DNA of 61,219 nucleotides from a virus (Duplodnaviria > Caudoviricetes): the IMG/VR virus record IMGVR_UViG_3300017788_000001, positions 1 to 61,219 of that record; one strand, written 5' to 3'. This document shows, in pieces, positions 1,924 through 61,219 of the stretch. The notes below the pieces were generated by a model that ran no database searches, was not told where the DNA came from, and saw only the letters and a list, made by a program, of their open reading frames with translations. The stretch's first letter is position 1. Each line of letters starts with the position of its first letter. The position numbers were made by a program, and so were the translations under genes.

Positions 1924-2904
1924 TTAACCCCTAGGTCTGTTGCCGTACTGCGGGAAGTACGTACTCAGAATCTGAGCGAAATTCTGGTTGAAGAAATTGC
2001 TCATACCGCTGATGACTTCCGCTGTATACACTTCTGGATTTTCCAGAGCATACGTCTGAATCAGGCTGTTCAACTGATAGGCAGAGTTGATAGGCATCAT
2101 GCTGAGCACGCCATAAAACTCTCTATCGAACTGTCTTGAATTGGCCCAGTCTTCAAGCTGTGCTCGTGTATAGTCTCTATTACGCTCAAGTCTGTTCTGT
2201 TCGCCTTGGAAAGCAAATCCTTCTCGTTGCCCATGCAGCTGCATAGCCGCATTGAACAGAGGCGCTGCGCCCTCTAGAGCTGCCCGCTGGCTAGCACCCG
2301 CTGCAATGGAACTGCCAGCTCTGTTGCCTCTGCCTGCCGCTTGTTCAAGACCCCTCATCCTAGCGTTACGTATGTAGGCACCATTAGGATCTATGATCTG
2401 ATTCATGGTGTCCGTGACTACGTTTGCCGGCGAGAATCCACCTTGCAGGTTAACCTGAGAGGGATTTGGCGGTAAGTTACCGCCTGTGCCCTGCGTGCCC
2501 TGAGGAGGCTTACCTCCTCTCCACTGCGACGGGTCGGAAGGAACCGCTGGATTATTACCACCAGTGCCTTGCGTTACAGGAGGTTTCAACGGTAGAGCCG
2601 GCGCATGACCGCCAGATCCTATTGGATACTTACCTCCTTCCCATGGTGTGAGCGAAGCCGGGTTGTTGCCTCCAGTGCCCTGTGTAGGTGTGGGAAGTGC
2701 AGGAGCGTTCCCTCCTGTCCCTATGGGGTACTTGCCGCCTTCCCACGGAGTTAGTAACGCCGGGTTATTTCCTCCTGTACTTACAGTAGGCGGCGGTGGC
2801 TGTATCCATGAATTACCCTGTAGCTGAGGCGGCGTGTTGCCACCCGTCAGAGGTGTTCTGGGGGCTGAAGGTAAAGCACCACCAGTCCCTTGTGTGATAT
2901 ACAT
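1924..2904 (-). CDS. putative internal virion/pilot protein with about 12 xGGxxP repeats (326 aa)
   Basis: ATG at 2904 after AGAGGGG; disordered repeat N-terminal half and a helical C-terminal half (GLEQAAGRG...SSIAAGA) resembling ejection proteins; directly downstream of the tail gene. Confidence 0.65.
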   Translation of the reverse strand: MYITQGTGGALPSAPRTPLTGGNTPPQLQGNSWIQPPPPTVSTGGNNPALLTPWEGGKYPIGTGGNAPALPTPTQGTGGNNPASLTPWEGGKYPIGSGGHAPALPLKPPVTQGTGGNNPAVPSDPSQWRGGKPPQGTQGTGGNLPPNPSQVNLQGGFSPANVVTDTMNQIIDPNGAYIRNARMRGLEQAAGRGNRAGSSIAAGASQRAALEGAAPLFNAAMQLHGQREGFAFQGEQNRLERNRDYTRAQLEDWANSRQFDREFYGVLSMMPINSAYQLNSLIQTYALENPEVYTAEVISGMSNFFNQNFAQILSTYFPQYGNRPRG

Positions 2905-2944
2905 ATCATCCCCTCTGTAAAGATGATTTTTCTTATGGAAGCCA

Positions 2945-5497
2945 TTAACCATCCTGATGTCCCTCCACTCTCGGATAAACTACCATGACTTGTACTATGT
3001 GGGAAGGCTCTACGGTTGATAGGTTACTCGCCTGCCCACCTTCTATTCTAAGGGACACACCTAGGCCCCAGTTCGCATGATCCACAAAGTTAGTGACATC
3101 TTGCTTACTTCTGTAGAAGTGCGCCGGAGGTGTGTACGGAAGGGAGATGTCCTGACTAGCCGTGGTGTAAGATTGATCGAAGTCTCTCTCTATACCCTTG
3201 GCTTTTACAACAAGATTCGCCATACCGTGACTTTTACCGAACAGCCGTATACCCTCCACGCCTAAGAAGTTGGACGCGTTGTCATTGTAAAGATGCGCCA
3301 ATTCAAAGTAATGGGTAAACGTAATACCGTTGAAGCCCCATCCTGAGTCCAGCTCATACACCCTAGTGCCGTCAACAGGATCATTAGATTCCACGTAAGG
3401 GTAGTCTGTAGCAGCATATCTACCGTAGAACACATCCCACACGACGTGCATACGTTCTTGCCCGTTGTCCTGTACTTGACTACTCCATGCCAGAGGCAAT
3501 CTGGCTACACCGTCATTGCTATAGTTTGACATAGCAATCAGAGGCTGCTCCCCTGTCATACAGAACGAATAGACATCACCTGAACGCAGGAATAGTCTGT
3601 ACTGATTCTTGCCTCTCACAGGCATCGCGCAATGCACACCGCCGATCTCTGTATCAAATAGTGACACAACCATCTTAGGCTTGAGCTGCGCCTGTACCTT
3701 GTCGCTAGCCCTGTACCCCATAAAGTCGGAGTACGTGCTGCTCTGCTCTAGGACGCTCACACCATTCTGATCAGCGAATACAGGGACCCTGCCGACATTG
3801 ACGCAGCTGTAAGGTAGTGCTCCGCTGTCAGGAGATATTGTCTCTGTAGCTATGTTGTCACCAATACCTGCCAGTCTGCTGATAGAACGCCTGCCGAACA
3901 CAAGCGTGGAATCGCCCACGCCTTCGAGCAGTCCCGTGATTTCATCGCCCATGGGAAACGTCTGCGCGCCATCTATACCAGAGAAGTTGGAAGGCTCGTT
4001 AGGTACAGACAAGTTCACAGTGCCTCCCAAATACCCTAGAGACAGGCAGAGTCTAGCATGCCTTCCTGCCCACTTCGGCTTGTCGTTTGCCTCCACATCT
4101 GGGTCAGTGATAATGGAACCGTAGGAAGCATAACGTTCCAGCCCAAGCTCTAATACGTCAAGCGGCACAGCGTAGCCCGTACGAGGCGGGCTGTAAAACT
4201 TAGCCCAAACAGCACGTGATGCACCTGTGGCCAAGTACGCCTCAGCATCCTCATCAATGCCGTAGAAGTTGGCGGTCAGTCCGACAAAGTGAGATTCGTA
4301 CTGCCTCAGCTTCTTGGTACCGGCAACGTTCGTTCTAATGATGGAGTCGACTGTGAGAATGTTGTTACCGTTTATTCTTACGACATCACCTACAACTATC
4401 TTGTTGTATGCGCCGGGACCGGAAGCACCGCTCAATGGGTCTAGCGGGTTGAACGGTATCAGCTCCACGCGACCTGTGGCATTTCCTGCACTCCAACTAC
4501 CGCTAGTCAGTACCACGGATTTGATAAGCATTTTGTAGTGGTTGGAGGCGAAGGCTGGTCCGACGTTGACAATATCTCCCACACTAGGATCAGCGCTTGC
4601 CGCCTGCGTCCCGTTGTCAAACGTCACGATAATCGAACGGTACATCCTAGCAGCGCCTCTGCTCTCATGTGTTTGAGGGGTGTGCCGTGCTACACAGTAA
4701 GACCAGTCAGACTCACCCGAATGCTCTGTGACAGAAGAGGCAGTAGCCGTGGAAGCTGCTGTGTTATCTTTATTACGGACACTAATTGATGTAGAGGCGG
4801 TACCTTCTACATAGGGCTCTATCCACACAGTCAAAGGTGACGTAGTTTTTGCTATGACAAGCCCATCAATAGTGCCTATTCTAAGTGTGTCGCCTACTTC
4901 CGTGAAGCTATTGGACACACCGTTTAATACGTAACTAGGAGCATCTCTGAACTCAAGCAGGTTGTTCCTGAACCAGTGCAGCCCACACACAGGGGTAGGT
5001 GAGGTCTCTATAGACGCCCTGAGTATAGTGGCGATAGCGCGTACCAAGTCTACGTAGTTGTCTACCGTCTCAGTGCTGTGCCTGCCAACGGCGTCACTGA
5101 TCGTATTAGCATCGACTGTAGAACCGCCGTCAACAATGATCTCGTCACCAGCACGTAGAACGGATTGGTCTTTAGTTATTGGGCAGTACAGAAGTTCATT
5201 ACCGCCGTGAGAGATATACACGCCTACATTGAACGTGCCCTGATCGGTGATAAGCTTTATGATGTCACCGGCCTGCACAGAAGAGAAAGCACCCGCATCA
5301 CTGATGCTGATGTTAACTGCCCATACATCAGTCAGGGCACCATTAGCCCAGCCGTCGTAAAGCTCAGTGCCGTCAATACGGCTGATGCCTCCGAGGGTTG
5401 TAAACTCATAATTCATGCAGCCGATTAGACTCCCCGGCTCTTTAGCCATGGCAGGGGAGGTGTGGTCTAGTCCTTTGTTTAGGGCAATGGTCAGCAT
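2945..5497 (-). CDS. putative tail tubular/nozzle protein (850 aa)
   Basis: Size, beta-rich composition and position after the adaptor gene; SVPNEPSNF...GDEITGL segment typical of podovirus nozzle proteins. Confidence 0.6.
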   Translation of the reverse strand: MLTIALNKGLDHTSPAMAKEPGSLIGCMNYEFTTLGGISRIDGTELYDGWANGALTDVWAVNISISDAGAFSSVQAGDIIKLITDQGTFNVGVYISHGGNELLYCPITKDQSVLRAGDEIIVDGGSTVDANTISDAVGRHSTETVDNYVDLVRAIATILRASIETSPTPVCGLHWFRNNLLEFRDAPSYVLNGVSNSFTEVGDTLRIGTIDGLVIAKTTSPLTVWIEPYVEGTASTSISVRNKDNTAASTATASSVTEHSGESDWSYCVARHTPQTHESRGAARMYRSIIVTFDNGTQAASADPSVGDIVNVGPAFASNHYKMLIKSVVLTSGSWSAGNATGRVELIPFNPLDPLSGASGPGAYNKIVVGDVVRINGNNILTVDSIIRTNVAGTKKLRQYESHFVGLTANFYGIDEDAEAYLATGASRAVWAKFYSPPRTGYAVPLDVLELGLERYASYGSIITDPDVEANDKPKWAGRHARLCLSLGYLGGTVNLSVPNEPSNFSGIDGAQTFPMGDEITGLLEGVGDSTLVFGRRSISRLAGIGDNIATETISPDSGALPYSCVNVGRVPVFADQNGVSVLEQSSTYSDFMGYRASDKVQAQLKPKMVVSLFDTEIGGVHCAMPVRGKNQYRLFLRSGDVYSFCMTGEQPLIAMSNYSNDGVARLPLAWSSQVQDNGQERMHVVWDVFYGRYAATDYPYVESNDPVDGTRVYELDSGWGFNGITFTHYFELAHLYNDNASNFLGVEGIRLFGKSHGMANLVVKAKGIERDFDQSYTTASQDISLPYTPPAHFYRSKQDVTNFVDHANWGLGVSLRIEGGQASNLSTVEPSHIVQVMVVYPRVEGHQDG

Positions 5498-14748: not shown

Positions 14749-14755
14749 ACTTTCC

Positions 14756-47214: not shown

Positions 47215-47361
47215 ATGTCCGATACTATTGGCTTCTTACGAGCAGCGGCTAGTCACTACAAGTCTGTGATAAAGTCGAAGTGGAACGCTTTGACCAAGAA
47301 AGAGAAGATTACTGCGGCTGTCGGTCTTGGCGCTGTAGTCATGCTGATCGTAATCTTCTAA
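47215..47361 (+). CDS. small C-terminally anchored membrane protein (48 aa)
   Basis: AAGGAG RBS; hydrophobic tail. Confidence 0.6.
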   Translation: MSDTIGFLRAAASHYKSVIKSKWNALTKKEKITAAVGLGAVVMLIVIF

Positions 47362-47370
47362 AGAGGTAAA

Positions 47371-47446
47371 GCGGGCATAGTTCAGTTGGTAGAACACAAC
47401 CCTTCCAAGGTTGGTGTCGTCGGTTCGAGTCCGACTGTCCGCTCCA
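47371..47446 (+). tRNA. tRNA-Gly(TCC)
   Basis: Cloverleaf; CAACC-CTTCCAA-GGTTG; TCCA end. Confidence 0.95.
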
Positions 47447-47450
47447 TTCA

Positions 47451-47538
47451 GGAAGCGTGAGCGAGGGGTTTATGCTAGAGCTTTGCTAAAGCTCCGGCCC
47501 GAAAGGGTCCGTAGGTTCGAATCCTACCGCTTCCGCCA
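47451..47538 (+). tRNA. tRNA-Ser(GCT)
   Basis: GAGCT-TTGCTAA-AGCTC; long variable arm; GCCA end. Confidence 0.95.
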
Positions 47539-47541
47539 TAC

Positions 47542-47618
47542 ACAGCGTTAGTTTAATTGGTTAGAACAACAGACTTTCAATCTGTACGATGCGGGTTCGA
47601 CTCCCGTACGCTGTACCA
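47542..47618 (+). tRNA. tRNA-Glu(TTC)
   Basis: ACAGA-CTTTCAA-TCTGT; GTTCGAC; ACCA end. Confidence 0.9.
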
Positions 47619-47622
47619 TTAT

Positions 47623-47679
47623 GGGGTAAGAAATTCAAGTGAGCTTGAATTCCTCCGTTCGATTCGGAGCACCCCACCA
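47623..47679 (+). ncRNA. 57-nt mini tRNA-like RNA without a normal D arm or anticodon loop
   Basis: GGGGT/ACCCC-ACCA, AATTCAAG-TGAG-CTTGAATT hairpin and T-arm CTCCG-TTCGATT-CGGAG. Confidence 0.7.
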
Positions 47680-47691
47680 ACAGGAAAACAA

Positions 47692-47859
47692 ATGACTGAA
47701 GTCACAATAACCAAGAAGCGTCTCGACGACCTACTTAAGGCGGAGGCAGAGCTAGACGCGCTACACGCTGGCGGTGTAGACAACTGGGAGTGGTATTACG
47801 AGTCCCTTAAGAACGCTGACCTAGCGGAAGACGACGATGAAGACGACGAGGAGGATTGA
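47692..47859 (+). CDS. conserved small phage protein (55 aa)
   Basis: L.AL.AGGVDNWEWY motif. Confidence 0.75.
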   Translation: MTEVTITKKRLDDLLKAEAELDALHAGGVDNWEWYYESLKNADLAEDDDEDDEED

Positions 47860-48065
47860 TGAAGAAGCTTGCAATTCTAGCCCTAGCTCTTCTGCTGGCG
47901 GCTAATGTTAGCGCAGCCAGCAAGCCGCGAATCACGGGCGGCAATCTACCCCCGATCCCGAGCAAGCCACGTATCACAGGTGGTAATCTCCCGCCTATCC
48001 TAGCAGATTACATCTGCGTTCCGTCAGCGCCTCGTGCTATTCGGCGCTATTGTCAACCGAGGTGA
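47859..48065 (+). CDS. small exported peptide with a duplicated SKPRITGGNLPPI core (68 aa)
   Basis: GAGGAGG RBS; Sec-type signal MKKLAILALALLLAANVSA; two repeats; a Cys pair. Confidence 0.8.
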   Translation: MKKLAILALALLLAANVSAASKPRITGGNLPPIPSKPRITGGNLPPILADYICVPSAPRAIRRYCQPR

Positions 48066-48068
48066 TTC

Positions 48069-48386
48069 ATGTGTGTAGTCAGTATGGTGGGCGATCACTT
48101 CAACGACCGCTTTAGAAAAGAGCCTGATTGGCAGAAGTACTTCCCTAGCAGCCCGGTGGCACCTACTCCTAGAGATGGCTGCAGACCTCTACTCCCTATA
48201 GATCGCGAAGAGTTTGACAGACTAAAGAAGCAGGTAGAGGAAATGCACGAGCTGCTCCGCAAGGCTAAGCAGTATGACGAATCCACTAACCAGTCTCATT
48301 GCGAGATGGAAGATAAAGTTGCCCTGCTGAAGCATATAGCCAAACAGTTTGGCGTTGACATGAAGGATGTATTCCCCTATGATTGA
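48069..48386 (+). CDS. conserved phage hypothetical protein (105 aa)
   Basis: MCVVSMVGD...AK.YD..T.Q..CE..DK pattern. Confidence 0.7.
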   Translation: MCVVSMVGDHFNDRFRKEPDWQKYFPSSPVAPTPRDGCRPLLPIDREEFDRLKKQVEEMHELLRKAKQYDESTNQSHCEMEDKVALLKHIAKQFGVDMKDVFPYD

Positions 48387-48927
48387 TACGGTAGATTTTT
48401 TAGAGTTCCCGAAGATGGCCCGTCTGTCACGCGAGTGCGTGATCACCGAGAAGATTGACGGCACTAACGCACAGGTATATGTCTCCGAAGACGGCGTAGT
48501 GATGGCAGGTAGTCGCAATAGATGGATCACGCCAGAGCAGGACAACTTCGGCTTCGCAAAATGGGTCAAGGATAATGAGGAGGAGCTACGCAAGCTCGGC
48601 CCGGGTCATCACTACGGTGAGTGGTGGGGCGCTGGTATTCAGAGACGTTATGGCCTAGATCACAAGAAGTTCTCCTTGTTCAATGTAGACAGATGGCAGG
48701 AAGACAGGCCTGTGTGTTGTGACGTGGTGCCTGTCCTTTACCGTGGTGTGTTTGATACTGCTGAGGTAGAACGTTGCATAGATAGTCTATGTGCTAATGG
48801 TAGTGTCGCAGCTCCCGGCTTTATGAACCCAGAAGGTGTAGTTGTCTACCACGTCGCCGGTAGAGTCGGTTTCAAAAAGACAATAGAGAGAGACGAAGTT
48901 CCAAAGACCCTTCAGGTGACACAATGA
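48367..48927 (+). CDS. RNA ligase-family nucleotidyltransferase
   Basis: Motif I TEKIDGTN, SRNR, GEW and PEGVV; start may be 48379. Confidence 0.75.
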   Translation: MYSPMIDTVDFLEFPKMARLSRECVITEKIDGTNAQVYVSEDGVVMAGSRNRWITPEQDNFGFAKWVKDNEEELRKLGPGHHYGEWWGAGIQRRYGLDHKKFSLFNVDRWQEDRPVCCDVVPVLYRGVFDTAEVERCIDSLCANGSVAAPGFMNPEGVVVYHVAGRVGFKKTIERDEVPKTLQVTQ

Positions 48928-49062
48928 TTATAACGATCACTGTGCCTAGCAAAGAGCACGACGTAGAGCACGCAGTATCTGTCCCTATCAGCCGTTACGA
49001 AGAGCTGCTACAGGCAGAAGCGCTGCTACGTTCTCTAGATGACTTATGTCCTTCGAGTAATC

Positions 49063-49230
49063 ATGACCGAGAAACCTAAGTTTAGACGAGGCCCATTGCC
49101 TGATCTGAGCAAGCCGTCGAAGCTACGCAATCCCAAGAAGAAGGCGCAGTTCGCTGGAACGTTCGCAGAAGACAACATCAAGCCTAGGCACAAGCCATAC
49201 AAGAGAAAGAAGGTGGTAACAGATGACTGA
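49063..49230 (+). CDS. small basic protein
   Basis: Lys-rich ORF overlapping the next start. Confidence 0.45.
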   Translation: MTEKPKFRRGPLPDLSKPSKLRNPKKKAQFAGTFAEDNIKPRHKPYKRKKVVTDD

Positions 49231-49456
49231 TCCGTTTTTCAATCCAGACAGCTACGGCACTATCACAGCGTTCGCTAGAAACATGACCACAGCTGAGCTG
49301 ATCGATCGTGCGAAGGACAAGTACTGGCTGGCGTCTCTCGACAAGAACGACCTGCGAGAGCTGGTGAGCGAGCTGGCGGACAGAGCCGAAGGGCTGGAAG
49401 AGTACGTCAATAGACAGCACGACAGGCCCGATGAATACTCACTCATTGACGACTAA
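49223..49456 (+). CDS. hypothetical protein (77 aa)
   Basis: AAGGTGG RBS. Confidence 0.55.
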   Translation: MTDPFFNPDSYGTITAFARNMTTAELIDRAKDKYWLASLDKNDLRELVSELADRAEGLEEYVNRQHDRPDEYSLIDD

Positions 49457-50222
49457 TCTACAGCCGTTAGTTGATGGCGACGTGCTGCGCTACAGGTGCG
49501 GCTTTGCTGCCGATTCCCAGAGAAGGAAGCAGCTGAAAGAGCAGCACCCCGACCTGAGTGAGGGCGACATAGAACAGCTGCTCTCGGACGAAGACTACTT
49601 AGGCTACGCCCTGAGTAACGTCAAGGAGTCCCTCACATCCACGCAGGAGATGTTCACCCTTCCGCCCCTACAGCTTTACCTGTCAGGCTCTGGCAACTTC
49701 CGAGAGCAAGTGGCTACCATCCTCCCGTATAAGGGTAATCGCACAGCGCGTAAGCCCAAGTATTACGAAGAGATAGGGCAGTACATGAAGGACGTATGGC
49801 GCGCTATTGTCGTGGAAGGGCAGGAAGCCGATGACGCTTTGGGCATCGAGCAGTACGGACGTACAGATAACAGCACTGTGATTGTGTCCATCGACAAAGA
49901 CTTGGACATGATTCCCGGCTGGCATTACAATCTCATGCGTAAGGAACTGTACGAGGTGAGTGAACGTGATGCTGATATCCAGCTGTTCCGTCAGATGCTC
50001 ATAGGAGACAGGACGGATAACATCCCGGGTATCGAGCAAGTAGGGGATGTTAGAGCAGAGAAGCTGCTGGCTTCCGTGGACTATGACGTAGATGCTGTGC
50101 GCAGCCTTGTCAAGGCCAAGTACCAAGAGCAGTATGCCAACGATTGGGAACGTGCATACAGGGAAGTGGGGACGTTGCTGTGGATCAGGCGTGAGCCTGA
50201 GCAGGAGTGCGTGCTACTGTGA
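49431..50222 (+). CDS. 5'-3' exonuclease (T7 gp6/FEN-like)
   Basis: DGD, NFR, YKGNR, EADD, SIDKDL and GDRTDNIPGI. Confidence 0.92.
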   Translation: MNTHSLTTNLQPLVDGDVLRYRCGFAADSQRRKQLKEQHPDLSEGDIEQLLSDEDYLGYALSNVKESLTSTQEMFTLPPLQLYLSGSGNFREQVATILPYKGNRTARKPKYYEEIGQYMKDVWRAIVVEGQEADDALGIEQYGRTDNSTVIVSIDKDLDMIPGWHYNLMRKELYEVSERDADIQLFRQMLIGDRTDNIPGIEQVGDVRAEKLLASVDYDVDAVRSLVKAKYQEQYANDWERAYREVGTLLWIRREPEQECVLL

Positions 50223-50609: not shown

Positions 50610-51029
50610 TAAGACTCCCCCTTTCCGGAGTGGCCAGCATGGAGTAGCGCTAAGTTCTGGTCGTTTGTACGATCAGGACTGAGAGCCAAGTGGACCCGCT
50701 GGCCGCCGAAATACGCAGCACTAGCCGCTGCCCGTAGAGCTAGCAAGAGCAGTAACAAGCGTCTCAAGCACGAGTTTCAATGCAACAAATGTAAGGACTG
50801 GTTTCCACAGAAGAATGTTAGTGTGGATCACATAGTGCCATGCGGCACTTTGAAATCATTTGATGACCTACCAGCCTTTGTCGAGAAGCTATTTGTCGGA
50901 CAAGACAAGCTGCAGGTTCTCTGTCATCCATGCCACCTGATAAAGGGAGCGGAAGACAGGAAGCTAGCGGCAGATAACAACAAAGAGGAATGCAGCCATA
51001 AAACTAAAGAACCTAGAAAACGAAAGTGA
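50602..51029 (+). CDS. HNH endonuclease; needs a -1 shift near 50619-50625
   Basis: F.RSGLR...RWPPK, CNKC, VDHIVP and LQVLCHPCH; no start codon in the main frame upstream of these motifs. Confidence 0.7.
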
Positions 51030-51271: not shown

Positions 51272-52024
51272 ATCAAGATCTTGATTCTTGACATAGAAAT
51301 CTCTCCAGTGCTTGCTACGATCTGGGGCCTGTTCAACCAGAACATCGGCATCAATCAGATCACAGGTAACTCAGAGGTGATGTGCTGGGCCGCCAAGTGG
51401 CATGGGAGTGATGACGTGTATTTCTCCTCCATCGAGCTGACTTCCAAGAAGCGCATGCTCAAGGAGATGTACGATCTGATCGAGGAGGCTGACGCAATTG
51501 TCACGTACAATGGCAAGGCTTTCGACCTCAAGATTCTGAACAAGGAGTTTGCTCTGCAGGGATGGGCTGCACCTAGTCCTTACAAGAACATCGACATGCT
51601 CGGAGTCATGAGGAAGCAGTTCAGGTTCACGTCCAACAAGCTGGGCTATGTGGCCGAGCAGCTGAAGCTCGGGAAGAAGCTCAAGCACCAAGGTCATGAG
51701 CTGTGGCTGCACTGCATGAATCCAAAGTCCGAAGAGTACAAGAGCAGCTGGGACATCATGGAGGAGTACAACATTCAGGACGTATTGCTGCTTGAGTCTC
51801 TGTACGACAGACTCCTTGGCTGGATTCACAATCACCCCAACCATTCCACTGAGACAGGTGAGCACGTGTGTCCTAACTGTGGAGGTAGTCACTTGCAGAG
51901 CAGAGGCACATACACAACGGCGTCTCTGAGCTACAGGCGTTATCAGTGCAGGGACTGCGGTAAGTGGTCTCGTTCTCGTCTAGCCGACAAGGACAAGAAG
52001 GGTCGTCAGGTCGTAGGAGTGTAA
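51272..52024 (+). CDS. RNase H-like/DnaQ-like exonuclease with a C-terminal Zn ribbon (possible ATC start)
   Basis: ILDIE, YNGKAFD, YNIQD and CPNC...CRDC. Confidence 0.85.
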   Translation: MKILILDIEISPVLATIWGLFNQNIGINQITGNSEVMCWAAKWHGSDDVYFSSIELTSKKRMLKEMYDLIEEADAIVTYNGKAFDLKILNKEFALQGWAAPSPYKNIDMLGVMRKQFRFTSNKLGYVAEQLKLGKKLKHQGHELWLHCMNPKSEEYKSSWDIMEEYNIQDVLLLESLYDRLLGWIHNHPNHSTETGEHVCPNCGGSHLQSRGTYTTASLSYRRYQCRDCGKWSRSRLADKDKKGRQVVGV

Positions 52025-53639: not shown

Positions 53640-54842
53640 TCAGTTAGCTGCGTTACTATATTGGGCATTATTCCATATCCCGTCTTTCATACCTTCCCAC
53701 ATAGCACGAGCAGCATCTCCCTGTATCGCCGTAGCGCCCCACGGCGTGAATCCGCCAGCAGCAGCCAGTCCTACTCCGTGGCCTAGACGCCCATTTCGTG
53801 CAGTAGCTTGTCTGCTTACATCATGAATCTCACGTGCGGTGAACGTCCTACCCGTGGCGGGATTGACGCGTCCCTCAAGGGCGGCCACGCCTCCTTGTCT
53901 AAAGGCATCTATATTTCTCTGCTGCGCGCTGGAGAAGTTGGTGAGTCCTCTTACGAAGCCAGCACCTACAGACTGTCCCGTGCGGGCGGTCTCCTGTTGC
54001 CTCTGCTGCTCAAGCCACGGGAACGCGTCAGCCATCCATCCTGTGCCTGCTGTGGCTGTGTACCCATTCTGGTTATACCAGTCCTGCATGGCAGCGGCAT
54101 CATTTTCCCCTTCCCAGTTGCGCAACCATCTAGCCACCGCATTAGGAGAATTTTGCGCCCAGTCGGTGTTGGCCAACCAGCCCAGCCCTCGTGTGATAGG
54201 AAGACCTGTATACTGGTCCACTATACCCAACCCTAGATTAGCCCAGTTGATATGACCACCCTGCACGGCGTCACCGGGCAAGAACCAGTCAATAACATTG
54301 CCTAACAATCCGTTCATACCCCAACGACTTGTGTTAAACCCAGACGTGTTAGGCAGGCCAGTAGAGATGGCGCTGTAGTTTGGGATACCCGTCCCGCCCC
54401 ATCCAATATCAACACCTAGCCCACGTCTCTGTCCGCCCAGCAGGGAAGGCCCTACCTGCGGGCCTCCGGGCGGTACAGTCGGACCGCCTGTAGGAGGAGT
54501 TACTGTAGGCCCTCCAGTAGGAGGCGTGGTTGGCGGGCGTGTAGGAGGGCGCCAGTTACCTCCGCCGCCTGACGGTACGTTAGGCATGGGGAAGCCGTTA
54601 CCTCCTATCCCCCAATCAAACCCTCCCGTCAAGAAGCCACCCCCTCCGCTAAAGCCGGGGTTTATTCTCCATTGGTCGTACGCGTTAGCCACAGGGGGGA
54701 GGTATCCCCCCATAGGCGGGTTGTTGTACACAGTGTTAGGATTGCCGTTGTTAGCGATGAGCGGTTGAGCATTCTGCGCCACAGACTGCGTGCCTGCACT
54801 GTTTTGTATAAAGCCCTGAGTAAGGGACTGCGGTGTTGACAT
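53640..54842 (-). CDS. Gly/Pro-rich late protein, putative internal virion protein (400 aa)
   Basis: AGGAG RBS; coupled to the giant gene; PPTGGPTV repeats. Confidence 0.65.
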   Translation of the reverse strand: MSTPQSLTQGFIQNSAGTQSVAQNAQPLIANNGNPNTVYNNPPMGGYLPPVANAYDQWRINPGFSGGGGFLTGGFDWGIGGNGFPMPNVPSGGGGNWRPPTRPPTTPPTGGPTVTPPTGGPTVPPGGPQVGPSLLGGQRRGLGVDIGWGGTGIPNYSAISTGLPNTSGFNTSRWGMNGLLGNVIDWFLPGDAVQGGHINWANLGLGIVDQYTGLPITRGLGWLANTDWAQNSPNAVARWLRNWEGENDAAAMQDWYNQNGYTATAGTGWMADAFPWLEQQRQQETARTGQSVGAGFVRGLTNFSSAQQRNIDAFRQGGVAALEGRVNPATGRTFTAREIHDVSRQATARNGRLGHGVGLAAAGGFTPWGATAIQGDAARAMWEGMKDGIWNNAQYSNAAN

Positions 54843-57800
54843 TAGTCAGCTCTCCTTTCAAATAGAAGCTCTAGTTTCTTTATCACGTCTTTGCGACGCT
54901 TGGCTTCCTCTTTCGCTTCCTCTTCAGAGAGTCCACGATCTTGGAAGGAGCCTGATTTCATGATGGAGTCCGCATCAATCAAGCTGGTCACATTGTCCGG
55001 TATCGATGCCTTCTTAATCAAGGCAATGTCCTGTGCCTGCACTTTGTTATCCTTCAAAATGGCCGTAGCCTTTGAAGGGCTGTACCCCATGCCTAGAAGA
55101 GCATCATACGTTTCTTTCAGCTTGAAATAAGCATCCAGCTCCGCCTGCCTCAAATCATCGTACTTGGCAAGAGCCGCGTACGGACCACGTAGTTCCAGTG
55201 TCTCGGCGATCTGGGCACGCCCTTCTTTTTGCAACGTGTCAAGTCTACTGCCCGCAATGAACGACGCCATGCCCGGATCGGCCACGTCCACCCTACCACC
55301 AGTGAACAATACGCTGGCGGCCAGCGCCCTCTCGTGAGGATCGATGTCTGTCACAGGCGTAGCACTCTCCTGATCGAACGCATTCATGACGCCCGGAAGG
55401 AAGCCGTCCACCACCTGAATAGCGGCTTCAGCCGTGCCGTAGTCGGCAGGCAGAGCGTTCTTGAAGGCAAGAGACGTGGCGGGGAACAGGCGTTCCAGCT
55501 TCGTTTTCTTGTTCTTGACAGGATCGTCCGTGAAGACGCTGGCCACGAACTTGGCTGTATCAGCTGTCGTGCGGGGCATGATCCACAGTTCCTTCAAGTG
55601 CTCCATGATTGCCTTAACCTTCACGTCTTCCGAGTCGTCAGATATGGCGATACGAATCATATCGTTCACCGGACCGTTAGGATCGAGACGTGACAGCCGC
55701 AAGAACACAGGATTGCCCTTCTCGTTCTTGCCTAGGTAGATGCCATCGCCGTAACGTCCTTCCGAGTACAGGAGCTTCTTCGCGGCCTCGATGTACTCCT
55801 CGTCATCATCATCGTTCAGCGCCTGAGCCAGTGCCTTGGTAGCGAATGCTGCCCCTGTCGTGGCTGCTGTAGCGCCTGCCAGACGCTTCGCGCCTTCCAG
55901 TGCATAGAGTAGCTTACCTTCAGGTGTCTGCGCTCTAGCGGCCTCTAGGAAGTCCTTGGCGGCCTGTCCATAAGCGTAGCCTGTGCTGCGGAACACGCCT
56001 TGGATGTATGTGGCGTACCACGTCAGAGGGAGCCTTTCAGCTAACTTGACTGCAGGAGCACCGCGCTGGAACGTAATCGTGGTGTCCTTGGTCATGTCAG
56101 CCGCCTGCTGTTCGATCTGTTCCTGTGTCCAGCCCTTACCCTCAGCCTTGTTGATGCGGTCGAGGAACCTCACGCGAGACAGAAACACAGCGGGCTTGAC
56201 CCACGCGTCGGACAAAGCAAACAGCTCAGTGACGAAGTTCTTGGCATTACCTGTCTTATCCGCAGCAGCTCTCAGGAGCTTGTTAGCTTCAGCCAGAGTC
56301 GTTGCCGATTCAAGCTCCACGACTAGCTTCTTGAGGAACTTCGTAGGCGTGGCCCTGAGTTCTTGACCGACCGCTGAATCAAGCAACGTGTACTTCAAGA
56401 ACAGCTCAAGGTCCGCGTCACGCGTCATGGGCGTGATCTTACCTACCACACCGCCCGGGGCAAGCTGATTGTTCAGCATGCGGGCCGACGCCTTCAGCGC
56501 TCTGAGCATGTCATCGGGAGTAGCGCCACCATTCTGCGCAATAACAGACCACGATCCTAGGAAATTAGCTGCTGTATTGAACGGCGAAAGGACGATCTGA
56601 ATGAACTTCTGCAGACTCGAAGTCTTGCGCAGAGCAGTCATCAGCTTGTTACCTGTAGCCTCAGCCGCACGATCCACAGTAGCGTGTGCCTGTGCCAGAG
56701 CGTTGGACAACGGAGTGAATATATCAAGTCCGTCATTCAATGCTGCCGCAATCTCAGGTGTTACACGCATACCGTTGAGTGGACCCCAGTCTTCACCAGT
56801 CAACTCTTCCGTAAATCGAGCATACTCGTCACTACTCCTATACGTCTCTGGATCTACAAACCACTTCTTGTTCCCGTTCTCGTACACTGTAGCCATCATA
56901 CGCATTCTGGAGGCTAGTTCACCCTGCTTCGCCAGAGTGATGGCAATCTTCGTGGGAAGATCTTCGATCTCTCCGAACAGCTGCAAGATTTCATTCGGGA
57001 TGTCCTCACGAGTCTTGAGTATAGAGCGGTCCTGTTTCATGCCTCTGTAATAACTCATCACCGGATTGCTCTGCTCATTCAAACCTAGCAGTCCGTTCAC
57101 AAGATATTCACCCTCCCTCTCCAGCTGATCCTTGTTGACACTCTGTCCAGCAGCTGCGATCTGCGCCTCTGCGAGCGCCCTGTACGCCTGACGCCTGTTA
57201 TGATCACCCTTGATCGACACGTCGTTCCTGATCTGCGTACGCAACTTCTCAGGATTCCCAACCCACAACGAGTACAGATAGTCCAGCTTGTCAAGCGACT
57301 GCTTGGCCAGCATCTCAGGATCGAACACACCGATGTCGTTGTTGATGACAAAGCGCACAGCGTCAGCATAGATCTTGTACGCATGCTTGTACTTGGACGA
57401 CACTTCCTTACCAGCGGCTTTCTGAGCCTTGGCAAGCTTGGCCTCTCTTTCAAGACGACGATTGCGTAGCTCTCCTTCCCTTCCTTGGAACGCAGCAAAG
57501 GTACGGGTGAAGTAGTTGTATCGATTCTTGATGATCGCTGAATACTTGCTAAGCTCCTCTTCCGTCATGGGACGTGGGTCACGCACACGAGCAGCGACGA
57601 TAGCCTTGGACTGTGCAGCGATGTTATCCAGCGCATCTAGCAGAGGACGTAGCTCCTTGTTCTTGTTGACATAAGAAGCAATGTGCTGTCTACGGGCGTC
57701 AACATCCTTGATGTCTGCTGCCTGCTTCAGCATCTGACCCACGTCGCTCTTCACCTGCTGTACGGACTTTCCGAGACGCTTGGCCATCTTCTCCATCCCG

Positions 57801-60800
57801 AACGCTGTGCGGTAGTAGTCACCTTCCGCCACGTAAGCGATGGAAGCAGCCTGCCCTTCCGCAAGCTCCTTGAGGTTGCCCAGCTCACGCCCCAGCACAC
57901 CGAAGCCAGAGAACTGGCCCAGCGCATTCTTTGCCGTGAACACGGACGCCTTGCCCTTCAGGGCTGCCTCGGCTTCCGCCAGAGCGTCAGCGCTAGCGCC
58001 CTTGAACTTGTCGAAGTTCAGGCTAGCCAGAGACAGCGTACGCATAGGCGTAGTCAGGTCGTTGGCAGCGATGATCACATCCCCCTTGTACTGAGGGCGG
58101 ACCATAACATCCAGTTCTTCCTGTGTACGTGAGGAGTTCTCACCAGTGAAGCGCGCTTCGCGCTCGCCTAGGAGGTCTAGATACTTCTGGTAAGTCTTCG
58201 CACGAATAGCCTTAGCTTTGCCGAGCGTGTATGTCACGTTGTTCGTAAGCGTAGAAAACTCATTGACGATGTTCTCGACTTCAGGAGTCTTCATAGGGTC
58301 GGCGTTGATTAGAGCCTTGATCTCTGTTGCTAGTTCACGACGTGTGATAGCACCGGACCTCACATCCGACTTCGCTTTCTCGATCAAATCCTCAGTTATA
58401 GGAGTGAGCCCCCAGCCATTCATCTGTCCGTTCTTTGCAAACACCTTGTGGTACATGTTGCTATACTTGGCTTCAAGCTTGGTGACTAGATCAAGGATCT
58501 TCTGGTCAGCCTTAGTTACGAACTCAGACTGGTTACCACCGCGAGCGAAGTCCTCGGCCGCCTGCACAGCGTGCTGCAACTCATGTAGCACGATGTTCGT
58601 AGCCAGAGTAGGGTCTTGTCTTGAACTCTCCAGCATGCCCTTTCCGAGCATGATCTCACGGCCGACAGCGTTGTCTGCATTACGCAGCTCCCCGTACAGC
58701 TCAGTGTTCTCAACGACAATTGGGATGTCTCCGAACAGGGCGTAATCTCCCGTAAACGCAGGAACGTCAATGATGTCCTTGACCTTTGTAGGAGTACCTG
58801 ATAGCAGACGATCCACAGACTCAGGTGACACGAAAGCACCGTCATCAGAGATGAGCGTCTTTTCCATGTCGTCGTAGTCTACGAACGTCTTGCCCTCTGC
58901 CTTGCGCTTATTGAACGCCGGGTGCCCGGGACCAACAACCATCTGAAGACTGGTGTCCTGCTGCGCAGCCACACTTCCGTTACTGATAGCAATCTCCTCA
59001 ACGAGCTTGTTGGCTAGATAACCAACGTCATTGAGATTGATGTCAGACTTACCAGTGATGTTCTTGTAGCCCGTACGTACGGACGATACGATGTCACGCA
59101 GGGCATTTGTGAGCACGCCTTTACCGGCCCTGTTGCTCATCGCAGCAGAGACGTAGTATGCGGGCAGCTCAAGAGCGAATATAGCCTCGTCGCCATTAGC
59201 GCCTTGTGTAGCGGCGGCGACAGCTGCCTGAGCGTCTGCATCACCCTTACCAGCTAGGTCGACAATCTTCTTGTGGATACGGGCGTTAGCCTCCTCACCG
59301 ATGAAGTGCCGAAGACCCGTAGCACCTTGAGCGCCGGCAACGTCACCAACGTGCTTGGCTTCGTGAGCCGCCACAACCATCAGACTGCCCTTGATGTTTT
59401 CAGGATCAAGCTGATCGGCCATCAGGTACATACGCTCACCGTCGTAGAAGCCCGCGCTGCCGTGCAGCGAAGGATCGTAGTTCGGGAGCTGTGTGGCGTC
59501 ATCAAGAAGTACGAGCTTACCGTCAGCCACCATCTTGCCAAGCGCAGCGGCCTCGCGGCTACTACCAATCTTGGACTGAATGCTGGACACAAGTTGTTCC
59601 GCTCTGCCGCCAGTCGTCTGTTGCCCACGGCTAGCCAGTCCGAATTGACGGATTGCGTCCTCAGACATCTCGGCTTGTGGGGCAGCTGGTTGTGCTGGCT
59701 GCTGTGTGACGACAGGGGCAACGGTTTGCTCGGGCTGCTGAACAGCCGGCTTAGGAGCCACAGTGTCCTTGGTAGGAACAGGGTTAGCCTCTGTCCAAGA
59801 CTTCAGGCCGCTGGCGACGAATCTAGCACGCTGCTCCTGTGGCATGTCCTTCGTGCTTTCCATAAGACGCTTCAGTTCACGCGAGCGGTCGTTTGTGTGC
59901 CTTGTCTTCGCCCTCTTCAGGGCCGCTGCTGCGTCCTTGTCGATGGTCTTCTGCGCTTCTTTAACGAAAGGAGAAAGAGCCGCCTCGTCGACCTTGGCAG
60001 CATCATCACGCGCCTGCTGGGCTTGAAGATCAAGACTCGCCTGACCCTGCTCAGCAGTGAGCGGAGCCGCCGGCTGAACCGGCACTCTCTCAGTGACACC
60101 TGCATAACGCTCAACGCGGTCGCGAGGCAGCGCGGCGTCACGTTCCATAGACATGAAGCCGGCTTCTTGTTCAGCTAGCTTTCTGGCAGCATCTTGTTCC
60201 TGCTGAAGATCACGCTGTGTGTAAGCCGTTTCTATGTCCAGACGCTTGTTAATCTCAGTAATGCGATCCGACGTTGCTCTAGTAGCGTCAGCAGCTCTGC
60301 GTTCGTTTGCACGCTGTCTGATCACAGCGCCGACTTCCGAATCACCACGAGCGACTTCGCGGGCACGACGGCCATTCTCTGCCGCCACTTCTAGCGGAGA
60401 GGTAACGGAACGAATAGCACCGCCTCCTACCATACCAGCCTTGAAGCTACGCCACGTGTCGGCAAATATGTCAGTAGATGCACGACTCTCAGCATAACGG
60501 CTTTCCTGCGCATTGTCTGATCCAGCGAGTATGGTGTTAGCACCTTCCTGAGCAAGTGTAGTTACTGCCTCAGACACACCTTCCTTGAACGCAGTACCGG
60601 CTACATCACCGACAACGCGACGGGTAGTAGTCTGGATAGCTCTACGTCCGCCTAGCTTTGCTAGAGCGCCGCCAGTCGGGATAGCAGAGATACCACCTTC
60701 TACGCCTGCCATGATAGTGGCGCGCTTTTCGGCCAGCTCTCTAGGAAGGCCCGCAGCTCTAGCGGCAGTGTATTCTTGGTTCCACACGTCTGCGGCGGGG

Positions 60801-61219
60801 ATAGTAGAAAATACACCGCCGGGCAGTGACGCAAGAGACGACGGACTACCGGCCACGTCTGCCACTGGCTCAGAGATAGAGCGTAGAAATCCGCTGGACA
60901 TAGACGCACCTAGCTGCTCAGCTCGTGCGCCGGCCTCTTCGCCGCGTCTGTATAGGGCGTACGCCTCCTCACGTCGCGCAGGCTGCTCTGCTACGTAACG
61001 TTCGATCTTAGCCTTCTCACTAGTGGCGTCACGGAACAAAGAACTTCTAGCACGCTCAGCGGCAAGCGCTTCGATCTTCTGCTGCTCTGACATACGAGAG
61101 GTGTCGATCACAGGCTGTGAGCCGGGTAACGCGCTGAATGGTCCCTGATAAAGCCATGATGTTTCTTTGTTAGGCGTGGTCAGAATGTCTGTGTCGGCTG
61201 TGGTGTACTTAGCTGCGCC
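54842..61219 (-). CDS. giant internal virion/ejection-type protein (about 2214 aa with 1..390)
   Basis: Uninterrupted frame; HEAKH and HELQH motifs; LHELQHAVQ..E.FARGG and Y..L.GE.EAR resemble LPD23 of large polyvalent proteins. Confidence 0.8.
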   Translation of the reverse strand, partial: GAAKYTTADTDILTTPNKETSWLYQGPFSALPGSQPVIDTSRMSEQQKIEALAAERARSSLFRDATSEKAKIERYVAEQPARREEAYALYRRGEEAGARAEQLGASMSSGFLRSISEPVADVAGSPSSLASLPGGVFSTIPAADVWNQEYTAARAAGLPRELAEKRATIMAGVEGGISAIPTGGALAKLGGRRAIQTTTRRVVGDVAGTAFKEGVSEAVTTLAQEGANTILAGSDNAQESRYAESRASTDIFADTWRSFKAGMVGGGAIRSVTSPLEVAAENGRRAREVARGDSEVGAVIRQRANERRAADATRATSDRITEINKRLDIETAYTQRDLQQEQDAARKLAEQEAGFMSMERDAALPRDRVERYAGVTERVPVQPAAPLTAEQGQASLDLQAQQARDDAAKVDEAALSPFVKEAQKTIDKDAAAALKRAKTRHTNDRSRELKRLMESTKDMPQEQRARFVASGLKSWTEANPVPTKDTVAPKPAVQQPEQTVAPVVTQQPAQPAAPQAEMSEDAIRQFGLASRGQQTTGGRAEQLVSSIQSKIGSSREAAALGKMVADGKLVLLDDATQLPNYDPSLHGSAGFYDGERMYLMADQLDPENIKGSLMVVAAHEAKHVGDVAGAQGATGLRHFIGEEANARIHKKIVDLAGKGDADAQAAVAAATQGANGDEAIFALELPAYYVSAAMSNRAGKGVLTNALRDIVSSVRTGYKNITGKSDINLNDVGYLANKLVEEIAISNGSVAAQQDTSLQMVVGPGHPAFNKRKAEGKTFVDYDDMEKTLISDDGAFVSPESVDRLLSGTPTKVKDIIDVPAFTGDYALFGDIPIVVENTELYGELRNADNAVGREIMLGKGMLESSRQDPTLATNIVLHELQHAVQAAEDFARGGNQSEFVTKADQKILDLVTKLEAKYSNMYHKVFAKNGQMNGWGLTPITEDLIEKAKSDVRSGAITRRELATEIKALINADPMKTPEVENIVNEFSTLTNNVTYTLGKAKAIRAKTYQKYLDLLGEREARFTGENSSRTQEELDVMVRPQYKGDVIIAANDLTTPMRTLSLASLNFDKFKGASADALAEAEAALKGKASVFTAKNALGQFSGFGVLGRELGNLKELAEGQAASIAYVAEGDYYRTAFGMEKMAKRLGKSVQQVKSDVGQMLKQAADIKDVDARRQHIASYVNKNKELRPLLDALDNIAAQSKAIVAARVRDPRPMTEEELSKYSAIIKNRYNYFTRTFAAFQGREGELRNRRLEREAKLAKAQKAAGKEVSSKYKHAYKIYADAVRFVINNDIGVFDPEMLAKQSLDKLDYLYSLWVGNPEKLRTQIRNDVSIKGDHNRRQAYRALAEAQIAAAGQSVNKDQLEREGEYLVNGLLGLNEQSNPVMSYYRGMKQDRSILKTREDIPNEILQLFGEIEDLPTKIAITLAKQGELASRMRMMATVYENGNKKWFVDPETYRSSDEYARFTEELTGEDWGPLNGMRVTPEIAAALNDGLDIFTPLSNALAQAHATVDRAAEATGNKLMTALRKTSSLQKFIQIVLSPFNTAANFLGSWSVIAQNGGATPDDMLRALKASARMLNNQLAPGGVVGKITPMTRDADLELFLKYTLLDSAVGQELRATPTKFLKKLVVELESATTLAEANKLLRAAADKTGNAKNFVTELFALSDAWVKPAVFLSRVRFLDRINKAEGKGWTQEQIEQQAADMTKDTTITFQRGAPAVKLAERLPLTWYATYIQGVFRSTGYAYGQAAKDFLEAARAQTPEGKLLYALEGAKRLAGATAATTGAAFATKALAQALNDDDDEEYIEAAKKLLYSEGRYGDGIYLGKNEKGNPVFLRLSRLDPNGPVNDMIRIAISDDSEDVKVKAIMEHLKELWIMPRTTADTAKFVASVFTDDPVKNKKTKLERLFPATSLAFKNALPADYGTAEAAIQVVDGFLPGVMNAFDQESATPVTDIDPHERALAASVLFTGGRVDVADPGMASFIAGSRLDTLQKEGRAQIAETLELRGPYAALAKYDDLRQAELDAYFKLKETYDALLGMGYSPSKATAILKDNKVQAQDIALIKKASIPDNVTSLIDADSIMKSGSFQDRGLSEEEAKEEAKRRKDVIKKLELLFERRAD
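61097..61219. repeat. 123-bp direct terminal repeat (copy 2)
   Basis: Identical to 1-123. Confidence 0.95.

Follow-up and report, generated by a model that had tools for sequence, protein, structure and literature searches.

The genome of a freshwater phage of the class Caudoviricetes (Duplodnaviria; IMG/VR record IMGVR_UViG_3300017788_000001), analysed here over a window of 61,219 nucleotides, contains two genes that share a short amino acid motif, TGGNLPP, and lie in different modules on opposite strands. The first (P0002) encodes a 68-aa product consisting of a predicted signal peptide, two identical copies of the 13-residue unit SKPRITGGNLPPI and a C-terminal segment with two cysteines. 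The second (P0001) encodes a 342-aa protein with a predicted disordered N-terminal half and a predicted helical C-terminal half, and is located where podophage ejection proteins are usually encoded. The features of both loci are listed in the table.

Features of the two motif-bearing loci and their neighbours (positions in the 61,219-nt window)
Coordinates	Strand	Feature	Observations
47692..47859	+	Upstream, translationally coupled gene for a 55-aa acidic protein	Matches phrog_6234, annotated 'host RecBCD nuclease inhibitor' (E 3.2e-20)
47859..48065	+	Gene for the 68-aa peptide with a predicted export signal (P0002), stop codon (48063-48065) included	ATG overlaps the TGA stop of the upstream gene by one base; GGAGGA stretch at 47850-47855
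47859..47918	+	Predicted signal peptide, residues 1-19 or 1-20	MKK, uncharged hydrophobic run of 12 residues, VSA/SAA small-residue sites; no lipobox Cys; residues 2-15 modelled as a helix by AF2
47919..47957	+	Motif unit 1	SKPRITGGNLPPI
47961..47999	+	Motif unit 2	SKPRITGGNLPPI; differs from unit 1 at 8 of 13 codons, all synonymously
48015..48053	+	C-terminal basic stretch	Bounded by Cys53 (48015-48017) and Cys65 (48051-48053)
1924..2952	-	Gene for the 342-aa putative ejection or internal virion protein (P0001)	85 homologues; synteny with StenR_269
2431..2952	-	Predicted disordered N-terminal half of P0001 (residues 1-174)	Six TGGNxPx motifs starting at 2847, 2778, 2718, 2676, 2565 and 2487, plus six looser xGGxxPx variants
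2467..2487	-	Exact TGGNLPP heptapeptide in P0001	Context TGGNLPPNPS matches TGGNLPPIPS of the peptide at 9 of 10 positions
1927..2430	-	Predicted all-helical C-terminal domain of P0001 (residues 175-342)	The part conserved in the distant relatives StenR_269 and DES1
2945..5497	-	850-aa protein directly upstream of P0001, nozzle-like	Position of the gene annotated 'tip attachment protein' in StenR_269; no family hit
54842..61219	-	Giant ORF, vRNAP-like by position	Continues across the contig ends into 1-390(-); position of the putative virion RNA polymerase of StenR_269; three small ORFs (403-1921) lie between it and P0001

The preliminary description of this locus, which reported the signal peptide, the synonymously diverged tandem units, the cysteine pair and the recurrence of TGGNLPP in the late gene together with about 12 xGGxxP variants, proved accurate in what it observed, and the observation extends beyond this phage. 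One correction concerns the start of the late gene, which had been placed at 2904. This position corresponds to an internal Met, and the longer N-terminus is shared by the 82%-identical homologue P0022. When 8 random substitutions were simulated, the encoded peptide stayed unchanged in only 2 of 200000 trials, which indicates purifying selection on the peptide sequence. In the six-frame translation of all 61219 bases, TGG[NPH]xP occurs only in these two genes, 2 times in P0002 and 6 times in P0001, and TGGNLPP was observed 3 times against an expected count of 0.0002. One peptide unit aligned to the N-terminal 174 residues of P0001 scores 45, a value that was reached by 4 of 5000 composition-preserving shuffles. 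The codons differ between the two genes, so the shared motif is not a recent DNA copy.

P0002, for which 24 homologues were found, belongs to a conserved family of about 25 metagenomic peptides, of which 17 (including the query) came from a single search and the others from additional searches. The residues T26, G27, G28, N29 and P31 are invariant in a 20-row alignment, and the members carry 1 to 3 tandem copies of the unit. In 19 of the 21 members checked, an A/V-x-A site directly precedes K/R-P-R, the start of the near-invariant KPRITGGN, and all 21 have exactly two Cys in the mature part, which fits a periplasmic disulfide. As judged by inspection and regular expressions rather than by SignalP, the N-terminus has the features of a Sec signal peptide cleaved by signal peptidase I. 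A lipoprotein or o-spanin was rejected because no Cys lies at the end of the signal peptide, the first mature Cys being residue 53, and because spanin-like genes lie elsewhere, at 52648-53227(-). The mature peptide has no predicted structure. The gene is located in a + strand block that also holds genes for an RNA ligase, an exonuclease and DNA polymerase subunits, far from the spanin and endolysin-like genes. A scan for promoters and terminators around the gene was at chance level.

No known family matches either protein. For P0002, PHROGs, Pfam and PADLOC returned no families, and the sequences of PDB gave only noise (E 0.44 or worse). NCBIfam gave no families for P0002 and P0005, and only far-sub-threshold hits for P0114 and P0121 (E 0.065-0.094, 13 bits against cut-offs of 33-45). 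An Atlas search with the peptide gave scores of 0.78 or less and thus no lead. P0001 had no match in PHROGs or Pfam, and its 41 homologues searched against Pfam gave only chance-level hits (best E 0.013, at most 2 of 41 members sharing a family). A PDB profile search and a Foldseek search of the P0001 model against PDB (nothing at E 0.001 or better) were likewise negative. The only lead, a weak one, is a language-model match to P22 gp7 (PF25688, P22_gp7; score 0.86, family on 22% of that cluster). PDB sequence searches with the nozzle-like protein found nothing useful, and the portal gave one weak hit.

The assignment of P0001 as a virion protein of this uncultured phage rests on gene order and that weak lead, and the paper on StenR_269 contains no mass-spectrometry passage. 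P0001 lies between the nozzle-like gene on one side and three small ORFs followed by the giant vRNAP-like gene on the other, the same order as in StenR_269, and ejection proteins of T7-like and P22-like podophages are released into the periplasm (PMC8954989). In line with such a role, which would require a largely helical or flexible protein able to pass through the portal channel, residues 1-174 have no predicted secondary structure and residues 175-342 are predicted to be all helical (pLDDT 65-80 in the helical part). The motif is a conserved short linear motif of this family: of 86 members, 49 carry TGG[NP]xP[PAVSG] and 15 carry exact TGGNLPP, up to seven copies each and 42 copies in all. 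In a partial relative, six TGGPLPP copies all use different codons.

Motif variants run in parallel in the two families. Six of the eight peptide heptamer types also occur among the 32 types of the putative virion family, including the double variant TGGNYPA, which is found in peptide P0114 and in the putative virion proteins P0033 and P0034 with the same RI flank (RITGGNYPA; 10 of 14 identical, next best 8). The unit frame P-x-x-TGGNLPP-L-x-x-P is shared at 10 of 14 positions. However, the peptide variants TGGNHPP, TGGNSPP and TGGNLPQ have no exact counterpart among the 86 virion-family proteins retrieved, the KPR flank is specific to the peptides, and the parallel variants are not shown to come from the same genomes. 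The peptide family is also much smaller than the motif-bearing virion family (4 clusters at 50% identity in 1.84 billion representatives, about 25 sequences, against 49 motif-bearing proteins). Many motif-bearing phages may therefore do without the peptide, or, alternatively, small ORFs may be under-called on short contigs.

Among the records examined, only this genome holds both genes, and co-occurrence could be checked in only this one complete genome. A megablast search of the GenBank phage collection with positions 47300-49300 found nothing, and tblastn with the peptide gave only noise (E 2 and 7). Scans of IMG/VR with the peptide, the 342-aa protein, the nozzle-like protein and the peptide alignment found no relatives. 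A profile (A2) found 12 IMG/VR loci, of which only one (L010) carries the motif, but its record is 46% complete and lacks the early module, with no exonuclease match, and therefore says nothing about the peptide. Degenerate DNA patterns fared no better in IMG/VR: the pattern for TGGNYPA gave 39 single matches and no contig with two, and that for KPRITGGN gave 2 loci, both out-of-frame chance matches in unrelated contigs. In a collection of genome contigs, the peptide alignment found nothing, whereas the A2 profile found one 8.5-kb MAG contig (L024) from a genome without a peptide match. In metagenome contigs, a single 6-kb locus (L007) holds a peptide homologue in a syntenic early module but no structural genes. 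Both the peptide and the motif are absent from the cultured phages StenR_269 and DES1 and from 4 IMG/VR genomes that are at least 94% complete, but these 6 genomes are phylogenetically distant, so their joint absence is weak evidence. The disordered region of StenR_269 has no second copy in its own genome. Among sequencing runs, one DNA run labelled freshwater metagenome, probably the source of the window, contains one identical contig and no variants, and no RNA run was listed.

The preliminary description had interpreted the peptide as an exported decoy: the virion protein would use TGGNxP motifs to engage a periplasmic or inner-membrane host factor during DNA ejection, as colicin translocation boxes do, and the soluble copy would saturate that factor and block related phages, or titrate a host sensor or protease. 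This interpretation is partly supported by our data, and the parallel with colicins remains an analogy. In the explanation that we tentatively favour, the 68-aa product is exported by the Sec pathway and trimmed by signal peptidase, so that the mature, disordered peptide begins at or within two residues of KPRITGGNLPP and copies the repeat unit of the disordered half of P0001. The latter is most likely an internal virion (ejection) protein, which would be released into the periplasm of a Gram-negative host when DNA is delivered. Because its gene sits in the early/replication block, the peptide would fill the periplasm soon after infection and compete for whatever the TGGNxPP motifs bind, either a host envelope factor or a partner ejection protein that the motif 'tapes' together. 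In either case, later-arriving phages of the same kind could not complete DNA entry, a superinfection exclusion by self-mimicry. This reading fits the predicted export signal, the early-module position and the parallel variation. The analysis itself establishes the gene, its conservation and signal-peptide features, the motif shared by both families and under purifying selection in each, the (predicted) disorder of the motif-bearing regions, and the gene positions, whereas export, the presence of P0001 in virions and its release, competition for a ligand, and exclusion are all inferred, without an identified partner or functional data. A complex prediction of the mature peptide with the helical domain of P0001 scored 0.00 against a mark of 0.32, which is neither for nor against binding.

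The sequence evidence for a shared ligand applies equally to a purpose other than exclusion, in which the exported peptide would occupy or neutralise a host periplasmic factor for the benefit of the current infection, such as a protease, a peptidoglycan enzyme, a porin or Tol-type protein, or an envelope sensor of a defence system that recognises the ejection protein. Possible benefits are silencing an envelope alarm or preventing progeny from being triggered on debris. The early-block position and the coupled upstream gene, whose match to a family annotated as a host-nuclease inhibitor suggests a takeover function, fit this view, but there is no candidate host factor in an as yet unidentified host, and a sensor would meet the incoming virion protein before the decoy is made. 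Although nothing in our data separates this reading from exclusion, we regard it as the less likely of the two. Somewhat less likely still is descent without a shared function, whereby a fragment of the repeat region of the virion gene was captured behind a signal peptide and now does something unrelated, for example a membrane-active or envelope-modifying role carried by the basic Cys-bounded tail. The similarity of unit frame and flanks is what common descent predicts, and the tail is peptide-specific and conserved in pattern. However, the motif and not the tail, which differs between subfamilies, is the most conserved part of the peptide, the codons differ throughout, so the copy is old and the motif has been kept by selection, and the same variants recur in both families.

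A secreted signalling pro-peptide, from which the tandem KPR-flanked units would be cut out as small diffusible peptides reporting infection density, as in arbitrium-type systems or multi-copy pro-hormones, appears very unlikely. A signal peptide followed by tandem copies of a near-invariant unit with basic flanks would be consistent with it, but no receptor-like gene lies nearby (the neighbours are the 55-aa acidic protein, an unknown 105-aa protein, the RNA ligase and the exonuclease), the downstream neighbour differs in L007, and no lysogeny gene was seen among the roughly 40 ORFs scanned of this genome, which is of the vRNAP podophage type. Furthermore, the conserved unit is at the N-terminus of the mature part, in contrast to AimP, where the mature peptide is C-terminal, and this reading does not explain the motif in the virion protein. 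A RiPP precursor was rejected as well, since no modification or processing enzyme was found among the 10 neighbouring ORFs scanned and the N-terminus is a classical signal peptide rather than a leader. Chance resemblance between two low-complexity stretches rich in G, P, T and N, or a spurious ORF, is refuted as far as sequence evidence can go by the shuffling, heptamer counts, family conservation and synonymous divergence described above, even though the profile of the peptide family also picks up unrelated giant repeat proteins with TGGVxPS units.

Several known systems resemble parts of this arrangement. P22 SieA is a phage-encoded envelope protein that blocks DNA delivery of kin phages, with escape mutations mapping to the ejection proteins gp16 and gp20 (PMC10883804); the system targets the ejection machinery and is specific to kin. 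The protein described here, however, is predicted to be a small soluble disordered peptide in what appears to be a lytic phage, and no PHROG or Pfam hit relates the two. T4 Imm and Sp, HK97 gp15, T5 Llp and Ltp of Streptococcus phage TP-J34 are envelope proteins made after infection or from the prophage that stop DNA entry or block the receptor for later phages, and Ltp is exported and acts on the incoming tape measure protein. These are folded membrane proteins or lipoproteins, none is known to work by copying a motif of the phage's own virion protein, and P0002 shows no family match. Colicins carry, in unstructured N-terminal translocation domains, short conserved epitopes such as the TolB box and OmpF-binding sites that engage periplasmic or outer-membrane proteins during import and with which free epitope peptides compete, but they are bacteriocins and their epitopes are unrelated in sequence. 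The N-terminal 'molecular tape' of T7 gp16 stitches gp15 into the periplasmic tunnel by short flexible segments (PMC8954989), and a soluble copy of such a segment would act as a dominant-negative inhibitor. P0001 has no sequence or fold relation to it, and no T7-encoded soluble copy is known to us. The HXS defence system includes HxsA, an exported periplasmic repeat effector that arrests phage DNA entry (PMC13128918), but HXS is host-encoded, needs rSAM maturation enzymes and a peptidoglycan-binding domain, is proposed to bind DNA electrostatically, and is not a mimic. No PADLOC hit was found here. In the literature library searched, supplementary files excluded, no paper contains TGGNLPP, TGGNNPA, TGGPLPP, TGGNYPA or ITGGNLP, and keyword searches on exclusion and ejection found no description of a motif-mimicking exported peptide.

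The pairing itself is real and unusual, while its mechanism is inferred. In the most far-reaching version, which remains doubtful, the decoy would co-evolve with the ejection protein, with Leu, Tyr, Gln, Asn and Pro variants tracking between the two genes, so that exclusion would be tuned to kin that use the same motif-ligand pair. This would be the first case of short-linear-motif mimicry between two genes of one phage genome and would give a handle on a still unknown periplasmic step of podophage DNA delivery. How short-tailed phages get their DNA across the periplasm is poorly understood outside T7 and P22, as is the way in which infected cells shut the door on later phages. A conserved, repeated motif in the disordered part of a likely ejection protein, together with a putatively exported peptide that consists almost entirely of that motif, points to a specific, testable binding step, for which the natural variants (TGGNLPP, TGGNYPA, TGGPLPP, TGGNHPP) offer ready-made specificity controls. 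If the decoy reading holds, it adds a new mechanism, motif mimicry of a phage's own virion protein, to superinfection exclusion, and it suggests that small exported ORFs repeating motifs of virion proteins could be sought as a general strategy.

The genome analyzed here is a 61219-bp IMG/VR virus record, rated 100% complete and classed as having direct terminal repeats, with 53.7% G+C and five tRNA genes, three of which form a tight cluster immediately upstream of the gene pair that encodes an acidic protein and the peptide considered here. The 123-bp terminal repeat of the record lies inside a single giant ORF (about 2200 aa, vRNAP-like by position) that runs across the contig ends, so the 'direct terminal repeat' may be an assembly overlap of a circular or permuted genome rather than the true physical ends. 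The virion and lysis genes are carried by the − strand, whereas the block around the peptide gene is on the + strand and carries an RNA ligase, an exonuclease and a DNA polymerase exonuclease subunit. Homing-endonuclease-like genes lie inside the modules. The only cultured relatives that we found, Xanthomonas phage DES1 and Stenotrophomonas phage StenR_269, are distant; these are podophages with a putative virion RNA polymerase (PMC10747016). The spanin matches point to a Gram-negative host, and the one sequencing run found to contain this DNA, probably its source, is labelled freshwater metagenome.

Coordinates of the features discussed in the text
Position	Strand	Feature
54842-61219 and 1-390	−	Giant ORF, vRNAP-like by position
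1924-2952	−	342-aa putative virion protein
2467-2487	−	TGGNLPP in the 342-aa protein
5491-6471	−	Tail/adaptor-like protein
6491-7144	−	Homing-endonuclease-like gene, endonuclease VII-like N-terminus (E 3.5e-5)
8042-8686	−	Homing-endonuclease-like gene, LAGLIDADG type (E 4e-14), next to the major head gene
8820-9776	−	Major head protein
11016-13163	−	Portal
13156-15172	−	Terminase subunits
15588-16145	−	Endolysin-like gene
24785-24861, 25874-25951, 47371-47618		Five tRNA genes (Arg-TCT, Met-CAT, Gly-TCC, Ser-GCT, Glu-TTC), three of them at 47371-47618
47692-47859	+	55-aa protein with an acidic tail, matching a PHROG annotated 'host RecBCD nuclease inhibitor' (E 3.2e-20)
47850-47855	+	GGAGGA stretch
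47859-48065	+	68-residue peptide
47919-47957	+	Unit 1, SKPRITGGNLPPI
47961-47999	+	Unit 2, SKPRITGGNLPPI
48379-48927	+	RNA ligase
49431-50222	+	Exonuclease
50823-51029	+	Homing-endonuclease-like gene, HNH fragment (E 7e-11)
51281-52024	+	DNA polymerase exonuclease subunit
51964-52506	+	180-aa protein at the end of the replication block, matching a PHROG annotated 'peptidase HslV family' (E 3e-20)
52648-53227	−	Spanin-like genes
L010 3001-3819 (G001:C1:14174-14406)		Homologue of the 342-aa protein in a partial IMG/VR phage, six exact TGGPLPP copies

The preliminary description had noted a signal peptide, two identical repeats that differ only synonymously, a Cys pair and a heptapeptide shared with a late protein, and this observation holds in every detail. 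The N-terminus of the peptide consists of MKK, a 12-residue uncharged hydrophobic run and VSA/SAA sites, and the two repeat units, which are followed by Cys53 and Cys65, differ at 8 of 13 codons, all synonymously; in simulations with 8 random substitutions, only 2 of 200000 left the peptide unchanged. The ATG overlaps the stop of the upstream gene, which encodes the 55-aa acidic-tailed protein, by one base; the two genes are translationally coupled. The start previously placed at 2904 in the late gene proved to be an internal Met. This gene holds 12 xGGxxPx variants in all, the exact heptapeptide included. In the six-frame translation of the whole genome, TGG[NPH]xP occurs only in these two genes, and the expected number of TGGNLPP is 0.0002. 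When only the composition of the N-terminal half of the putative virion protein is preserved, 4 of 5000 shuffles reach the observed alignment score. The codons differ between the two genes.

The peptide belongs to a conserved family. A search of 5.8 billion proteins found 16 homologues of 63-83 aa, all metagenomic and unnamed, and a profile search of 1.84 billion representatives added two more (P0107 and P0114), while cluster listing added another two (P0116 and P0117) and a second profile search a further four (P0121-P0124), giving about 25 sequences that fall into only 4 clusters at 50% identity. In the 20-row alignment, T26, G27, G28, N29, P31 and R38 are invariant, and K22, P23, R24 and I25 are nearly invariant. 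In 19 of the 21 members checked, A/V-x-A directly precedes K/R-P-R, and the mature peptide would therefore begin with KPRITGGN; the two exceptions, the peptide studied here and its closest relative, have two extra residues. All 21 members have exactly two Cys in the mature part. The unit is usually present in two copies, but in one copy in P0114 and in three in P0004 (83 aa), where an extra, degenerate first unit (KPRITSVSREGQAT) stands ahead of two intact units, suggesting that units are gained and decay within the family. AF2 with the family alignment predicts only the signal-peptide helix and no structure in the mature part. No family in Pfam, PHROGs or PADLOC matches, NCBIfam gave only sub-threshold hits to two homologues, and no PDB entry matches meaningfully. 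The one homologue whose surrounding DNA was obtained, on a 6-kb locus (L007), sits in a comparable early module, with a small ORF upstream that likewise ends in an acidic run and a homologous exonuclease downstream, although its immediate downstream neighbour is different. The first profile search also picked up giant proteins of unknown origin (P0108, 2609 aa, and P0110, 3707 aa) that carry 14-18 copies of a 13-residue unit with TGGV[AT]PSLAQ; this is the same period as the peptide unit, but probably represents unrelated low complexity.

The motif is likewise a conserved feature of the family of the 342-aa protein, for which we identified 85 homologues. Of the 86 proteins, 49 carry TGG[NP]xP[PAVSG] and 15 carry exact TGGNLPP, 42 copies in all and up to seven per protein, whereas other lineages use TGGNLPA, TGGNYPA, TGGNQPP, TGGNTPP, TGGNAPV, TGGNNPA/P or TGGPLPP. 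AF2 with 41 homologues predicts no secondary structure for residues 1-174, where all the motifs lie, and an all-helical domain for residues 175-342, with pLDDT 65-80. Only the helical domain is conserved in StenR_269 and DES1, whose N-terminal regions are Pro/Thr-rich but lack the motif. In IMG/VR, 12 loci encode relatives, of which only L010 has the motif; each of its six TGGPLPP copies is encoded with different codons, which shows the same protein-level conservation as the two units of the peptide. The gene lies directly after that for an 850-aa nozzle-like protein and is followed by three small ORFs and the giant vRNAP-like ORF. This is the order seen in StenR_269 and the place where T7-like and P22-like podophages encode proteins that are ejected into the periplasm (PMC8954989). 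However, assignment of the 342-aa protein to such proteins rests on gene order and on a weak lead to P22 gp7 from a search of the Atlas; direct family membership could not be shown, with Pfam, PHROGs, a PDB profile search and Foldseek all negative.

The two families vary in parallel. The peptides show eight TGGxxPx heptamer types, six of which (TGGNLPP, TGGNLPS, TGGNNPP, TGGNQPP, TGGNYPA and TGGPLPP) also occur among the 32 types of the putative virion-protein family. The clearest case is TGGNYPA, which differs from the commonest form, TGGNLPP, at two positions: peptide P0114 reads PRITGGNYPARIL and protein P0033 of the virion family reads LRITGGNYPAQTL, 10 of 14 identical, with the next best match at 8. 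There are counter-examples, as TGGNHPP (P0121-P0124), TGGNSPP and TGGNLPQ have no exact counterpart among the 86 virion-family proteins retrieved, and none of these pairs is shown to come from one genome. The peptide studied here (TGGNLPPIPS) and the 342-aa protein of the same phage (TGGNLPPNPS) agree at 9 of 10 positions, and the common peptide unit PRITGGNLPPLEKP and the virion unit PAGTGGNLPPLVQP agree at 10 of 14, with the same Pro-to-Pro frame.

Both genes could be examined together only in this genome. Six distant relatives, namely StenR_269, DES1 and four IMG/VR records at least 94% complete, lack both the motif and the peptide; this joint absence is consistent with linkage but is confounded by phylogenetic distance. 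The record of L010 has the motif but is 46% complete and lacks the early module, whereas L007 has the peptide but no structural genes.

Functionally, the nearest systems are the exclusion proteins that act on DNA entry. P22 SieA targets the ejection proteins gp16 and gp20 (PMC10883804). T4 Imm and Sp, HK97 gp15 and TP-J34 Ltp are further exclusion proteins of this kind. The host HXS system uses a periplasmic repeat effector (PMC13128918). None of these is described as copying a motif of the phage's own virion protein, and none is related in sequence. No paper in the library searched contains the motif strings, and keyword searches, which did not extend to supplementary files, found no description of such a decoy.

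Several explanations could account for the pairing. The shared motif may reflect a shared ligand that is used for host manipulation rather than exclusion, or common descent of the two sequences with an unrelated present function of the peptide, and neither of these can be excluded with sequence data. A signalling pro-peptide and chance resemblance, by contrast, fit the data poorly.

The finding is real and unusual, and is stronger than could be known from the single sequence on which the preliminary description was based. The interpretation offered there, a decoy or superinfection-exclusion peptide that competes for a host factor engaged by the virion protein, is only partly supported: the analysis establishes the pairing of the motif at the family level, whereas export of the peptide, the virion location of the 342-aa protein and the decoy or exclusion mechanism itself are inferred, and we regard this mechanism as well motivated but tentative. 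In the most economical reading, the motif would be a short linear binding motif displayed multivalently on a disordered arm of a protein that reaches the periplasm during DNA delivery, and the exported peptide would be a soluble competitor for the same site. The ligand may be a host envelope protein, in line with the colicin analogy proposed initially, or equally a partner ejection protein, by analogy with the T7 gp16 'molecular tape' (PMC8954989); one complex prediction of the peptide with the helical domain of the 342-aa protein gave no verdict and counts neither way. Because in this view the peptide is made from the early block and sent to the periplasm, the proteins with which it can compete would be those of later-arriving virions, which would give exclusion of kin.
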